Shown here one piece after another: positions 7,781-55,902 of a stretch of DNA of 64,000 nucleotides. This DNA comes from Eledone cirrhosa (taxonomy: Eukaryota), in the NCBI GenBank assembly GCA_964016885.1, contig OZ024742.1, forward strand, positions 53,692,001-53,756,000. The letters run 5' to 3'. Every line of letters begins with the position of its first letter. Positions within the stretch are counted from its first letter, which is position 1. The notes beneath the pieces are model-generated. The model searched no databases and was not told the origin of the DNA. It saw only the letters and a list, made by a program, of their open reading frames with translations. The translations under genes were made by a program, and so were the position numbers.

Positions 7781-8127
7781 GAAAAGGTGAAGTTGGAAAT
7801 AGAACAGAAAATATATCTTAGGGTCTGTTTTTCTTTTTTTTCCATTTCTTTGATTCGTCAAAGTGACAGTTTTGAAAAAATGAGATTGACAATTCTTTTA
7901 AAAAAGAGTTTTATAATGTATATAAAGTATACTCAACATTTGATAAGATGAATTTTAATAATACATCGAAACCGTTAATACTTTATAAAACTCTTTTTTA
8001 AAAGAATTGTCTCTCATTTTTACAATAATGTCACTTTGACAAATCAAAGAAAGTAAAAAAAAAACTAAAAAAAAGATAAACAATCCCGAAAATATATTTT
8101 CCGTTCTATTTCCAACTTCACCTTTTC
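7781..8127. repeat. Imperfect foldback palindrome with a degenerate hammerhead in the loop
   Basis: ~135-bp arms GAAAAGGTGAAGTTGGAAATAGAAC / GTTCTATTTCCAACTTCACCTTTTC; loop ttgataa-GATG..CATC-GAAA-ccg. Confidence 0.75.
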
Positions 8128-9639
8128 TCTATAACTACTGTTTTGTATAGAACCTTACTTCTGTTTCCTAACACACACACACACACACACACACACACAC
8201 ACACACACACACACACACACACACACACACACACACACACACACACACACACACACACACACACACACACACACACACACACACGCACGCACGCACGCAC
8301 GCACGCACGCACACACACACACACACACACACACACACACACACACACACACACACACACACACACACACACATTTATATATATCTTCCCTCCTTCTTCC
8401 CTTTTCTCAATAACTTACCCAGTTATTGACGCTCTCAGCGGTAGATATCTTGTCTTTAAGGCGTGGAAATAACCGAGACCCCCCAATATACAACTGATGA
8501 GGAAAACTCCCCCCGTTCTTACTTTCTTCTTATTCCCACTCCATTTTAAGCTACCTTAAATAGCAACTACGCAGCTATTTCTATTCTCTCTCTCTCTCTC
8601 TATATATATATATAAGTAAGAGAAGCTTATGGAATAGAATGGATACAGCTTCGGTCGTTTCCTCCCTCAATGAGCCAATGATATAATTAAGTCCGTATTA
8701 TTAAAATTCAAACTTAACTGATTAGAACGCATACATATACGACTTTGCGTGTGTAGGAGAATTGAGTTACCCGGACCGATGCATCAGTTTTTACGATTCC
8801 GATCTACTGGCGGTGTTCCGAGTGGAACAATTAGATAATGTTAGTATACATTACGTAATTTGGTGGGGACCGCGTTGTCAGCGGGAGTTCGCCTCCCTGT
8901 AGTGGAAAGTTCCATATGGCATGCTAGTACTTCCCATTGCCGGTCGTAAGTGAATGTAATAGCTCTCAACTTCTCAAAGAGAAGATAAGGCAAGCCTGAC
9001 CATTCACAAGGAACACACGTTGACATTGATTAAAATTGAAAAAAAAAATATGAACATGACAAAAGCACTCTACCAGGGTGCTACATATATATATTGATGC
9101 ACACACACATACATGCACATACACTCACGCACGCACACACACACACACACACACACACACACACACACACACACACACACACACACACACACACACACAC
9201 ACACACACACACACACACACACACACACACATACACACACACACATACACACACACACACACACACACACACACACACACACACAGTAACTTACACACAC
9301 ACACGCACGCAGAAAAATCTATATGTATATACCAATTGCTCCTCGGTTTGATTTCCACAGAAAATATTTATTTCACATGGAAATGGTTAATCTGAAGCTA
9401 CGTTTGTCTTAGAACCGTTGAATAGTAGAATGAAACTCAAGGACAACCACAACAACAGCCACAGCTAAAACATCAAAAATACATATAATTACAAGCACAA
9501 TCAGAACAAAAAGCAAAACCCCACCCACTGTCACAATCATGGCATCAACAACCTGATCCACTTTCCTAATCCCAACCACAATCCCAAACATAACTAAAAT
9601 CACGATAACACCACGGCGACAATCATAACCCTAATCCCA

Positions 9640-9965
9640 ATCATAGTTAAATCATATAGTTGTTAAATCACAGTTAAATAATATTTTCAAAAATAGTTAC
9701 GTCATATTTTAGTTAAATTGTTGTTAAGGCATATTCAGGTTTAGTCATAGTTAAGTAATAGTTAAGTCATAGGTATGTCATATAGTTAAATCATAGTTAT
9801 GTCATATAGTTAAGTCATAGTTATGTCATATAGTTAATTTATAGTTAAACCGTATATTTTAAAAGTTGTATTTAATTCATAATCTAGTTAATCCTAGTTA
9901 AGTCATGTCGTAGTTAAATAATAATTAATTCATATCGTAGTTAAATCACAGTTAAATCATAAAGT
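9640..9965. repeat. Degenerate minisatellite of TAGTTAA(A/G)TCA-like 11-13-mers
   Basis: Direct reading. Confidence 0.7.
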
Positions 9966-11052
9966 TATGACTATTTCTCCATTTTCTTTTTTTTTCTTTT
10001 ATTGCATGAGAACAAAAACCGGATTCTCCAGATAAAAACAACTAAAACTACAAATATATTTAGTAAACAATTTATACAAAATATATTCATGAATATTAAA
10101 CGATATGAGATTGTCGGTGCCACGCACTTACTGCATATAATGTATTAAAGCAAAACAGTAAAAAACATAATAACTGTATAATATACTCACACATTTTAGT
10201 TATATCTGCTATTTCTCTGAATAGCGAATAAACTGTCTTCTTTCCAAATCTTATCCTTATTCAATAGTATATTTGTTCTTTTCATGTATTATAAAGAATC
10301 AGTTCTTTTATCGTAAATCGGGCATATTTTGCTTTTCACTAATACAATTCTCTGTTTATTAACATTTGCATTAGTTTTTAAAGTATTTGAGTTTGGTAAT
10401 TTATTATTATTCCGTTTCTTCCTTTTTGTGAATCTTATAATTTTTCTCCATTTCTTTTTCATTTTTCCTCGTTCAAATTTAATCATTGGTTTTGCACAAA
10501 AGAAGGTGTAAAACATATAAACAATAATTTAGAAATGAAAATAAAAATACAGGGCTCATTTCATATACGTATGCAAAATCAATTTTAGCTAAATTGATTT
10601 CGCATTGTTGTTTTCTTATATAAAGCGCATTAAGTGATAAGAGAACAAAGACGGTTCTATGTTATTTCCATTCAGTCAACTAGTAATTTCCTTCTCTAGC
10701 CTGGGACGCCATAACTTACAAATAGGAACACAAGTCTTAAGAGGTTATTCATGGAGTAAATGAAGAAAGTACTGCCGATATATATATATATACACACACA
10801 TATATATATATATATATATATATATATATATATATATATATATATATATATATATATATATATATATATATATGTGTATATATACACACACACACATATA
10901 TATATATACATATTTAATTTTAAATATAAATATGTATCATACCTATATATATATATATATATATATATATATATATATATATACATATTTAATTTTAAAT
11001 ATAAATATGTATTATGCCTAATATATATATACATATATATTATATAGAAATG

Positions 11053-11102
11053 GTTTCTACAGGACTAGAACTGTTTCATTCAGGAGAAATCATCAGAAAA
11101 GC
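11053..11102 (-). ncRNA. Hammerhead ribozyme motif in a short (TA)n-flanked insert
   Basis: Minus strand: CTGATGA-tttctcctgaat-GAAA-CAG ttctagtc CTG-TA-gaaac; same family as 26429-26548 and 54520-54835. Confidence 0.7.
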
Positions 11103-52789: not shown

Positions 52790-53125
52790 ATATATATATA
52801 TATATATATATATATATATATGGAGGACTCTTTGACATTAGAGATAGAACAGATACTCTGTACCATTTCCTGTCAGCATGACTTGGCAAGCTATTTAGAA
52901 TACTGGTTTAACCGCTTTACTTCCCTCCGAAGAAGAGATATTATCTCGAAAATTAAGGACATTTAAATAAATCTAAGGTAAAAGACTAATTGTCAACAAT
53001 AGCTTTTGCATTTGCATTCTTTATTCTATGTCCATACCTGCATTTTTTTGGTTTTATTATACATATACAAACGTTTATATATATATATATATATATACAC
53101 ACATAAAACCTTTTCATGTGTAGTA

Positions 53126-53316
53126 TAATTGTTTCTACTTTTGGCACAAGGCCAGCAATTACCCAGTACATTACTGGTACTTTATTTTATCGACCCCATA
53201 AGGATGAAAGGGAAAGTTAACCTCGACGGTATTTGAACTCAGACCGTAAGGGGACGTAACTCTATGCTGGAAAGCATGGCGTCCAACCCTCTACCGTTAC
53301 TGCCAATTCTCCGCCC
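53126..53316 (-). mobile_element. Family-A SINE
   Basis: Reverse complement of 18529-18718. Confidence 0.85.
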
Positions 53317-53834
53317 ATTGTGGTATAATACATACACTAAACAATTACCTCCGTTATAATCAATTGTGATGTACATAGTAAATGTCATTGTATCTATTAT
53401 AATTTTACATATAAGAGATTTTTCACATATCTGTTTCATTTTAGTGTAAAACACATAGCACTTCTATCTTTTTTGCAACATACTACTAGGGTTGTTATTG
53501 ATGGTATATATATATATATATATATATATATATATATATATATACACATAGAATTGTATTAATTAAAATAAATTGTTAATATATAACCATCTGTTTTTGA
53601 TATATATATTATTCTGGCTATTAAAACATAAATTACAACGGAATCTACGCAATGTTGAGTAAATGTTACAATAAAGATTAGTATGTAATTCACATCTAGT
53701 AATATTTCTTGTTTCGCTGGTGATGAACTTACTCAAAGATTCATTTACCGCGTTGTCTACAATGTCTAGTTACTACACGAGACTCTAATTAATGAAGAGC
53801 ACAGTTGAAATGAATGCAAGCAGAACAACATTAT

Positions 53835-54040
53835 CGGTGGAGCATCGGACAACATGCTTAACAGCATAGAATTACGGCCCTTTACGTTCTGAGTTTAGAT
53901 CCCACCGTAGTTAGCTTTGCCTTTCATAGTTACGGGGTCGATAAAATAAAGCACCAGTAATGGACTGAGGTCGATTTAATCGACTTTCCCCCTCCCCCCA
54001 AAAATTGCTGGCCTTGTGCCTATAGTGGAAACAATTATTT
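53835..54040 (+). mobile_element. Diverged family-A SINE (long variant)
   Basis: Same body with the extra GTCGATTTAATCGACTTTCCCC segment also seen at 37125-37342. Confidence 0.75.
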
Positions 54041-55902
54041 GGAAGTAAAGTCCTTCATACGTCACCATGCATGTAAACATGTGCGAAAAGTTTTTAAATG
54101 TTCCAAGATATGGGGAATCATAAAGTTAAGACACATTTTAGGCATTATATATGATGTCTACTAGAATCTGAGGAAGACTGATGTTGCATCCCTAAAGATA
54201 AACAATTAAATATTTTTAGATTCTTAGATAGATACACCCCCGCCGCCCACACTCAAACACACCACACACACTCATATATATGTTTCTATTTAACAATTTA
54301 ACAATTTTCATATTTATTATATTAGCAGTATACATGTACACACACACACACACACACACACACACACACACACACACACACACACACACACACACACACA
54401 CACACACACACACACACACACACACACACACACACACACACATATATATATATATATATATGTATCCCGGGTTCAACTGGGGGTAACCACAGTAAGTAAG
54501 TATAAATGTTTAATATGAAAATGGCTTCTACAGGACTAGAACTGTTTTGTTCGAAGGAAATTATGAAGACAGCAGTGCCTGTAAGTGTGTATGTGTTTGT
54601 CTAAATGTACTCAGTGTGAATTTACTTTTGCCTTTGTATCACTATGTATTTTTCTCTAAATATAGTATTTTCAAACAATCCACACTCTTTAAATCCATCA
54701 CACAATAATCTCCACCCATCCCAATTACCATCTTCCCATACAGTCAGAAAATGTATAAATACCACCATATCACATTGACACTCGGCTTTCTTGATAATTT
54801 CCTTCGAATGAAACAGTTCTAGTCCTCTAGAAGCCATTTCTGTATTACACACACACGCACACGCACACACACACATATATATATATACGTACATATATAT
54901 ATACATATATGTGTGTATGTGTATGTGTGTGTGTGTGTGTGTGTGTGCGCATATATGTATACACACGTGCACACACAGACACACACACACACACATACAT
55001 ACATATACATATATATACATCTAGGAAAAGAATCAAGACACCGAAGACTGACCTCCGGCCGTTTCGACAGCTAGATCCGAAACAGCTCATCCGTCGGGGG
55101 CCTAACTCTTTTGCTATTACCCACTCTACCCTAAGTATTGTGTACTCTGATTGTCAGCAATAAAATGTATTAAACAAAGATATGATTGTTCTGTACTTTA
55201 TAAAAATTTATATACATACGTACATACTTACATGCATACATATTTACTTACATGCATACATACAAACAAACATACATACAAATACATATACATGTATGTT
55301 TGCTTACAGATAGGAATAGGTTGGTCGATGGTTGTAAATAAAGATAGTTGGAAACCTAAGATATTTTATCGTAGACTTTCTCATCATTTTTCTAATTGCC
55401 AATTGTTTATAAAAGAAATGAAGAAAGAATTGTATATATTTGTTTTCAATTTATGCCATAATATTTGACATTTACGATCTAATTACAAATCACACAATAG
55501 AAGAAAAATGATATAAACTCATCAAAACAAACATTGAAGACAGTGAGGTATTTTTAATAACCAAATAAACTAATTGAATTTTCATCGATATCTATCGGGA
55601 AATGTCTCGAAGTTTTACAACAGTAGTTCATTTTAATGAGTAAGGAAAGAAAGGGAAAGAGTGTTAGTGAGAGTGAGTGTGTATCTATGAGAGAGAGAGA
55701 GAGAGAGAGAGAGAGAGAGAGAGAGAGAGAGAGAGAGAGAGAGAGAGAGAGAGAGAGAGAGACAAATATATATATATGCACCGAAACAGTTACATACATC
55801 GGCACACTCATATTCACACACAAACATACTCTCACATCTATCTATTTACCTTCATATCTATCTATCTATCTATCTATCTATCTATCTATCTATCTATCTA
55901 TC

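Follow-up and report, generated by a model that had tools for sequence, protein, structure and literature searches.

The window analysed here is a stretch of 64,000 nucleotides of the Eledone cirrhosa genome (G000:C3:53692001-53756000; genome 3.0 Gb) that contains many microsatellites and retroelement debris. Eight foldback palindromes lie within it, which the initial annotation had described as unrelated sequences without an open reading frame (ORF), anchored in (TA)n and carrying a hammerhead ribozyme motif near the apex. The foldbacks are real, known in kind and not a new mobile element; their value lies in the junction evidence that they hold on how inverted repeats of Penelope-like elements (PLEs) form. 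As judged from their sequence, the arms correspond to the pseudo-long terminal repeat (pseudo-LTR) ends of several abundant PLE families. We consider it probable that the palindromes are hammerhead-bearing PLE 3' ends set head to head in (TA)n, most likely as two separate complementary DNAs (cDNAs) per site. Families are labelled by the window position of their foldback, namely F1 (26421), F2 (40899), F3 (28971), F4 (52541), F5 (7781), F6 (32532) and F7 (29611), and positions given as +n or -n are distances from the first C of the family's hammerhead core.

Foldback structure and hammerhead motifs

Self-BLAST and a repeat finder recovered an inverted repeat at all eight loci, and the longest ATG frame across them encodes 48 aa, which upholds the annotation on both counts. 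Arm identity is 99% at 28971, 98% at 40899 and 29611, and 93% at 26421, and it is 76-78% over the whole match at 7781, 52541 and 54520, the last of which has arms 211 nt apart. A tail of 45-75 nt, overlooked in the annotation, extends one arm only. Anchoring in (TA)n was seen at both ends of 26421, 28971, 40899 and 52541, but at one end only of 7781 and 54520 and at neither end of 32532. The loci are also not all unrelated, as 54520 and a stub at 11096 can be assigned by sequence to the same superfamily as 26421. Every locus has a hammerhead, whether complete, variant or partial; the placement near the apex fails at 29611, a tail-to-tail structure with its hammerheads outside and (TA)63 at its apex.

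Hammerheads were searched for with a hand-written type I descriptor in strict and relaxed form, using 300 block-wise dinucleotide shuffles as the control. The strict descriptor gave 7 matches in the window versus 0 in each of the 300 shuffles, and the relaxed descriptor gave 13 versus a shuffle mean of 0.02. Six of the seven strict matches fall within 26421, 40899 and 52541, and the seventh is the related stub at 11096. These three foldbacks have the minimal type I features (core CUGANGA...GAAA...UH, helices I and II, and a palindromic loop 3), with a complete motif on both arms of 26421 and 40899 and on one arm of 52541. The descriptor missed 7781, 54520, 32532 and 29611, where motifs were read by eye alongside family copies, giving for example a near-complete U3-A8 motif on one arm of 54520. 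An intact type I core is absent from 28971, where a U4C core common to the displayed family copies occurs on both arms, from 29611 (CTGTGGA versus the family CTGATGA), and from 32532, which has the 3' half only, as had been annotated. The U4C core CCGANGA (window 29216-29222) is common to displayed copies of F3 and of the 32532 family (L256-L274), and in a related organism the canonical U appears at position 29217 in about one third of reads.

An Rfam scan of the window returned no hammerhead family, only microsatellite-driven miRNA matches and one weak tRNA-like match, and single-strand folding of F1-F3 monomers did not favor the hammerhead fold. An alignment of 20 F4 copies and the window copy showed 92.6% of predicted pair cells to be paired, with two-sided changes in 4 pairs, and this covariation lies above all 500 shuffles and all slid controls, where the shuffles ignore relatedness. 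Three copies (L063, L081, L181) begin at or next to the predicted hammerhead cut, too few to serve as evidence of self-cleavage. Among 14 tight foldbacks that are not short interspersed nuclear elements (SINEs), picked from the self-BLAST list, seven contain a hammerhead or part of one, and no hammerhead was found in the other seven.

Parent families, apices and arm ends

Exact pattern matches genome-wide numbered 1400 for F1 (tail), 2880 for F2, 286 for F3 and 41,012 for F4, with 0 for the reversed controls; a first look gave 2339 candidates for 7781, 372 for 32532 and 253 for 29611. A DNA search with the 66-nt F1 tail, unlike the exact pattern, returned no match. The F4 pattern is a 29-mer with about one match per 73 kb, and several F4 subfamilies have covarying hammerhead stems. 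The F2 parent is a 4.2-kb two-ORF unit consisting of ORF1 and an intact reverse transcriptase (RT)-GIY-YIG ORF, and the F3 parent is a 3.13-kb single-ORF unit with an intact 860-aa RT-GIY-YIG ORF; Pfam matched RVT_1 and GIY-YIG in both (L181 and L185, respectively), and the window F2 and F3 arms match the parent units at 94-100%. Partial tandems have same-strand spacings of 4202-4209 (F2) and 3125-3133 (F3), and the F3 pseudo-LTR overlaps the ORF start, with the ATG within the tail. The hallmarks of endonuclease-positive (EN+) PLEs are present: an RT followed by a C-terminal GIY-YIG domain (F2, F3), partial-tandem pseudo-LTRs, and an inverted 5'-truncated copy with a one-sided tail. By linker motif only, partly after PMC8557442, F2 is presumably Neptune-like and F3 Penelope/Poseidon-like.

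For F1 and F4, PLE-like motifs were recognized by eye in ORF pieces (L052, L191, L192), and Pfam gave no match for L191 or L192. No intact F1 ORF was found, the only upstream ORF seen (L052) being broken, and a PDB search gave no informative match. At L188 (G000:C4:15418000-15423500), 13 head-to-tail 344-bp units, each made of the F3 start region, a U4C hammerhead, the tail and the ORF start, form a retrozyme-like array.

Apices were compared in 66 of the first 69 listed F1 tail matches on C1, a local tandem of three (L051) being excluded; the first 20 F1 loci had been chosen by likeness to the palindrome and are left out of all frequencies. Three or more TA follow a terminal tail in 58 of the 66 copies, and 37 copies are short foldbacks. 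Of 42 inverted arms, which lack the tail, 41 end between +54 and +64, on an AT stretch leading into (TA)n; a nested stub contributes one of the 42. Among 29 copies with an apex near the hot spot, 25 apex sequences were counted, none more than twice, and many apices hold filler copied from neighboring bases. Different apices combined with fixed outer ends suggest that the palindrome is made at each site. A mobile palindromic element should show one apex and the same two termini across copies, and the F1 copies do not; accordingly, the proposed class of mobile ribozyme-foldback elements, in which identical apices would recur, is not borne out, the arms being ordinary PLE-family ends. Two further loci (L028, L183) are tail-to-tail duplicates round a (TA)n apex like that of 29611 and form a second foldback class.

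Arm ends cluster at fixed positions. In F1 the tail arm starts at -8 to +2 in 31/66 copies and the inverted arm in 31/42, and in short pairs 21/24 F2 arm ends fall at -46 to -38 and 16/22 F3 arm ends at -52 to -40, junction microhomology blurring the F2 and F3 positions by a few bases. Longer copies carry TATAAATA 29 nt above the F1 stop site, TATAAAA 31 nt above that of F2 and TATTAAA 33 nt above that of F3. Across the three families the apex thus keeps a distance of 29-33 nt to a TATA-like box, and its distance to the hammerhead core is 6, 44 and 52 nt in F1, F2 and F3. Based on this constant box distance and variable core distance, the apex appears to track the likely transcription start rather than the ribozyme, with predicted start nucleotides A(-6) in F1 (window 26499), A(-44) in F2 and A(-52) in F3. 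Two other causes of the apex were considered and rejected: RT stalling at the hammerhead, given the three different core distances, and a 3' splice site (CAG is found at each of the three hot spots), given that copies retain the AG and carry an extra G.

This extra G was examined in copies joined straight to TATA at the F1 stop site, of which there are 29 genome-wide; of these, 21 have G as the preceding base, 5 have A, and 3 keep the C of the element itself. At an internal F1 control site, three copies joined likewise all have the element's base and 0/3 an extra G (Fisher p=0.03). As background, G follows TATAT in 4-6% of cases, or in 43% where the run ends, compared with 20/23 observed (p=2e-5). 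For F2, 448 matches join at the stop site, and a hand count found G before the start in 13/98 distinct places among the matches listed, the other joins being mostly absorbed in TA or CA microhomology. The G-bearing solos include copies with and without the tail (16/21 and 5/21 in F1; 7/11 and 3/11, with 1 interrupted, among the fetched F2 copies), and the tail-less ones suggest that a tail-less cDNA can reach the start alone. The extra G at the arm stop site points to a likely capped transcription start.

Arm pairs were sampled as every minus-then-plus pair among the first 100 listed matches each of F2 and F3, together with the window F2 pair, 56 in all; one (L200) is two insertions and not a pair, leaving 55. 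Tail labels come from reading the printed sequence, with five automatic calls corrected. The tail is on exactly one arm in 51/55 pairs, and in none do both arms have a terminal tail; the remaining four are disrupted or run on (L196 and L197, whose arms continue into ORF1, and L203 and L211, with one arm disrupted). Among the 30 long pairs (over 500 bp), the tail arm is the shorter one by more than 100 nt in 12 and the longer one in 14, the arms of the other 4 differing by no more than 100 nt. In the 12/30 with the shorter tail arm, each arm holds sequence absent from the other, and window 52541 and 54520 are of the same type. Such pairs, with neither arm nested in the other, could not arise by copying back on a single intact cDNA. 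The initial annotation had offered, as its other option, a stereotyped snap-back product of PLE RT; a stereotyped PLE integration by-product is supported, but the snap-back holds only in part. L073 and L085 were rejected as long pairs with independent arms, since they actually hold a nested short foldback.

Junctions were classified in 54 pairs (L197 and L200 left out), of which 35 overlap, 4 are blunt and 15 have inserted bases. In non-overlapping pairs a bare tail is joined to a tail-less arm (L022, L065, L067, L298, L312 and window 11096), which on our analysis corresponds to the geometry of L1 twin priming. Both F2 and F3 form a size continuum from short pairs up to full-length PLEs. At the upper end, L181 (G000:C1:21871700-21881100) is a mirror of two over-unit F2 copies of 4.4 kb per arm, with its junction at the predicted hammerhead cut site, a 3-bp stem and a 5-nt loop.

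Feature map of the window

Table 1. Positions and layout of the foldbacks and related features in window coordinates.
Feature	Position	Strand	Description
F5 foldback	7781..8170	+	tail-less arm (-) 7781-7927; tail-bearing arm (+), tail 8128-8170; older copy
F5 hammerhead	core TTGATAA at 7940	+	U3-A8 minimal variant, loop-3 palindrome decayed, tail-bearing arm only
F1-superfamily stub	11038..11155	-	inverted tail almost directly joined to complete hammerhead (core 11096); (TA)n both sides
F1 tail-less arm	26421..26477	-	outer end on (TA)11 (26401-26422); inner end at AGCT hot spot
F1 apex	26478..26498		locus-specific; templated duplication of inverted-arm end, 24-nt period
F1 tail-bearing arm	26499..26636	+	likely transcription start A 26499; complete type I hammerhead, core 26505, predicted cut after 26543
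F1 tail	about 26560-26636	+	terminal stem-loop, then (TA)20
F3 head-to-head pair	28931..29367		tail arm 28931-29167 (-), tail-less arm 29165-29367 (+); (TA)n both ends
F3 hammerheads	29122 (-), 29216 (+)		U4C minimal type
F7 tail-to-tail duplicate	29546..29928		arranged round (TA)63 at 29708-29833
F7 hammerheads	cores 29614 (+), 29925 (-)		at outer ends; same core mutation in both
F6 foldback	32521..33071		apex within long stem II of family hammerhead; GAAA at 32917 (+), 32844 (-)
SINE-like insert	32635-32822		in F6 left arm
F2 head-to-head pair	40859..41289		tail arm 40859-41096 (-), tail-less arm 41092-41289 (+); (TA)n both ends
F2 hammerheads	41052 (-), 41136 (+)		complete; apex at likely transcription start
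F4 pair	52457..52789		tail arm 52457-52619 (-) stops within stem II; (TA)n both ends
F4 tail-less arm	52620-52789	+	extends about 70 nt further 5'; complete hammerhead, core 52690
F1-superfamily pair	54462..54835		tail arm 54462-about 54568 (-); longer tail-less arm about 54574-54835 (+)
54520 tail-less arm motifs	TATA box 54754, U3-A8 core 54791	+

Other foldbacks occur in the window. A nested foldback of ~1.4 kb at 24789-26404, from another TA-anchored repeat family, has a hammerhead-like 3' half and no clear core. No hammerhead was found in a foldback with TA-rich ends at 39422-39660 or in the short hairpins that end other repeats at 26926-26977, 27058-27127, 32467-32522 and 41375-41433. 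Solo pseudo-LTR stubs with a hammerhead motif and no inverted arm lie at 11408 (-), 21154 (+), about 21500 (-) and 52927 (+). One SINE-like repeat is present as inverted copies at 36911-37827 and 53164-53967, and the same repeat sits in the 32532 arm.

The remainder includes an (AAATGAA) array of 277 copies with 99% matches (21906-23842) and non-LTR retrotransposon ORFs at 43059-51359, 56412-60796 and 370-1338, where Pfam identified an endonuclease-RT at 44905-47490 and an RT at 370-1338, with further related copies. Broken PLE-like ORF fragments were recognized by eye at 4137-5818, 12715-13245, 15521-17781, 19286-20968, 24289-24651 and 63265-63636, and Pfam gave no match for those of them that were scanned.

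How the palindromes may form

We lean towards a model in which these PLEs integrate by routine asymmetric twin priming from two fixed sites, with an abundant cap-stopped class marking each family's start. The RNA would start at a promoter inside the pseudo-LTR and be capped and mostly uncut by the hammerhead. The endonuclease would open both strands of a (TA)n tract, and one DNA end would prime at the tail end while the other would prime at a TA-like site 45-75 nt further 5'. Each cDNA would stop independently; with a priming region close to the RNA 5' end, both would extend for 60-240 nt and run off at the cap. The two cDNA 3' ends would be joined via short microhomology, often with templated filler. 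Many cDNAs would run off at the cap because the priming region is also near the 5' end of a pseudo-LTR-started transcript, and the hammerhead would lie near the apex because it is just downstream of the start site. All enzymatic steps here are ones that we infer. In our best reading true snap-back is a minority route, and 29611 is likely a different product, a duplication folded round its (TA)n tract. The stubs carry no TATA box and are probably inert; were host transcription to read through them, the product would be a long hairpin in which the hammerhead is buried.

The papers cited below were available in part, and statements about them refer to those parts. The published EN+ PLE insertion unit (Craig et al. 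2021, PMC8557442; PMC3846280) resembles the loci described here in its head-to-head inverted truncated copy, junction palindrome, preference for (TA)n targets and partial tandems, and has a tail of 30-40 bp at one end, compared with 45-75 nt here. Unlike that unit, many copies here have only 130-240 nt per arm, a fixed stop site and an extra G. The palindromes were published by Arkhipova et al. 2013 (PMC3846280), who attributed them to self-priming in which the template was probably antisense; our junctions favor two cDNAs templated by sense RNA. PMC8557442 names the origin of the tandem and inverted structures as an open problem. Cervera and de la Pena 2014 (PMC4209133) mention opposite-strand minimal hammerhead pairs 100-700 bp apart, and the metazoan PLE hammerheads of that paper share with ours the core, the palindromic loop 3, the extra base before stem II and the U3-A8 variant, but not the U4C core in displayed copies of F3 and F6, the 3-bp helix III round the palindrome in F1 or the F6 stem II of about 90 nt. 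Drosophila Penelope has its promoter inside the pseudo-LTR and no TATA box (PMC2377424). Non-LTR retrozymes (PMC7229834; bioRxiv 10.64898/2026.07.22.740005) are likewise small ORF-less hammerhead repeats from PLE pseudo-LTRs, but they are head-to-tail tandems, whereas the window loci are single head-to-head pairs and thus not retrozymes.

The closest parallels to the proposed priming are L1 and the Poseidon PLE of Anolis. Twin priming is described for L1: microhomology serves both to pair the second primer with an internal RNA site and to join the two cDNA ends, and full-length 5' junctions carry an extra G, the mark of a copied cap (PMC11702581). The two L1 cDNAs lie side by side with an overlap of no more than 1-10 nt; here the two would begin at fixed sites close to the 3' end and in most cases cover the same sequence, which yields a palindrome. 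In vitro, the anole enzyme cuts an AT-rich target and extends both of its strands, priming at two internal sites, one on either side of the tail, with unprocessed RNA as template (Frangieh et al. 2024, PMC11167929). This behavior fits the proposed two-site priming, including that hammerhead cleavage is not needed; the available text of that study does not derive an inverted copy or report cap-stopped products. In the literature covered, which leaves out most subscription papers (including the 2004-2006 Penelope papers) and supplements, no twin priming or cap-stopped class is described for PLEs, nor did we find in print short arms stopping 29-33 nt below a TATA-like box, the extra G in solos, the 51/55 one-tail pairs or the 12/30 pairs with non-containing arms.

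Several points weigh against asymmetric twin priming. Both the start site and the cap are deduced from DNA, the internal control for the extra G comprises three copies only, most F2 solos join via TA or CA microhomology without G, and the F3 box TATTAAA is non-canonical. The start site was mapped for F1-F3 of the seven families. The anole enzyme uses its priming sites equally on both strands, which does not by itself predict a one-sided tail (PMC11167929). Short pairs cannot discriminate twin priming from snap-back, and the non-overlapping pairs could be later central deletions. Finally, true snap-back is the apparent origin of L181, L105 and L199, where either a 3-bp stem closes a loop of 5-7 nt or the arm ends lie 12 nt apart.

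These last loci favor the alternative that one cDNA folds back and primes itself, the tail then being lost by endonuclease trimming or by a switch to target (TA)n, as does arm similarity, which within one locus is roughly equal to or greater than that between loci. Self-priming has been proposed for PLE junction palindromes (PMC3846280) and endonuclease resolution for the tail (PMC8557442), and the 12:14 split of arm lengths would likewise be expected if a snap-back with a long loop were trimmed at either end. However, self-priming requires the first-made arm to be trimmed in 12/30 long pairs and in window 52541 and 54520, many short apices have no loop at all, tail-less solos reach the start and carry the extra G, and non-overlapping pairs occur; as a general route, we consider it unlikely. 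That the palindromes are tiny non-autonomous elements, transcribed and moved as foldback units, seems very improbable and is largely refuted already. The high share of short foldbacks among the sampled F1 copies, the lack of an intact F1 ORF among those found and the apices that occur twice speak for such units, but the diversity of apices, the variation of the tail-less outer ends within +54 to +64, the absence of a TATA box from short copies and the F2 and F3 continuum to full-length PLEs do not fit them.

Foldback chimeras are a known sequencing artefact, and the tail-to-tail loci 29611 and L028, with shared variants round (TA)n, fit a DNA-level duplication. We nonetheless give scarcely any credence to the foldbacks as a whole being assembly or library artefacts or generic DNA-repair foldbacks at (TA)n hairpins, as the arms differ by substitutions and by the tail, the apices sit at a fixed element position, and the extra G is present. 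In addition, relatives of F2 and F3 occur in DNA reads and contigs from a related organism, whose sequences are mostly 90-99% alike. Contigs from run X1 span the F2 apex with at least 31 letters on each side and both T and A seen at the center, and one foldback joint appears in raw reads with 1-2 start positions. These data support the foldback class and not the window loci themselves.

As objects, the palindromes are ordinary transposon debris. If asymmetric twin priming is correct, no antisense template would be needed to explain why PLEs have an inverted pseudo-LTR, a tail on one side and palindromes at their junctions, and transcription start sites would be readable from genome sequence alone. 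The model predicts which nucleotide starts the transcript in three families, that the template is capped and uncut, and that each insertion arises from two cDNAs, both templated by RNA; the thousands of young copies in this genome are a natural record of integration products.

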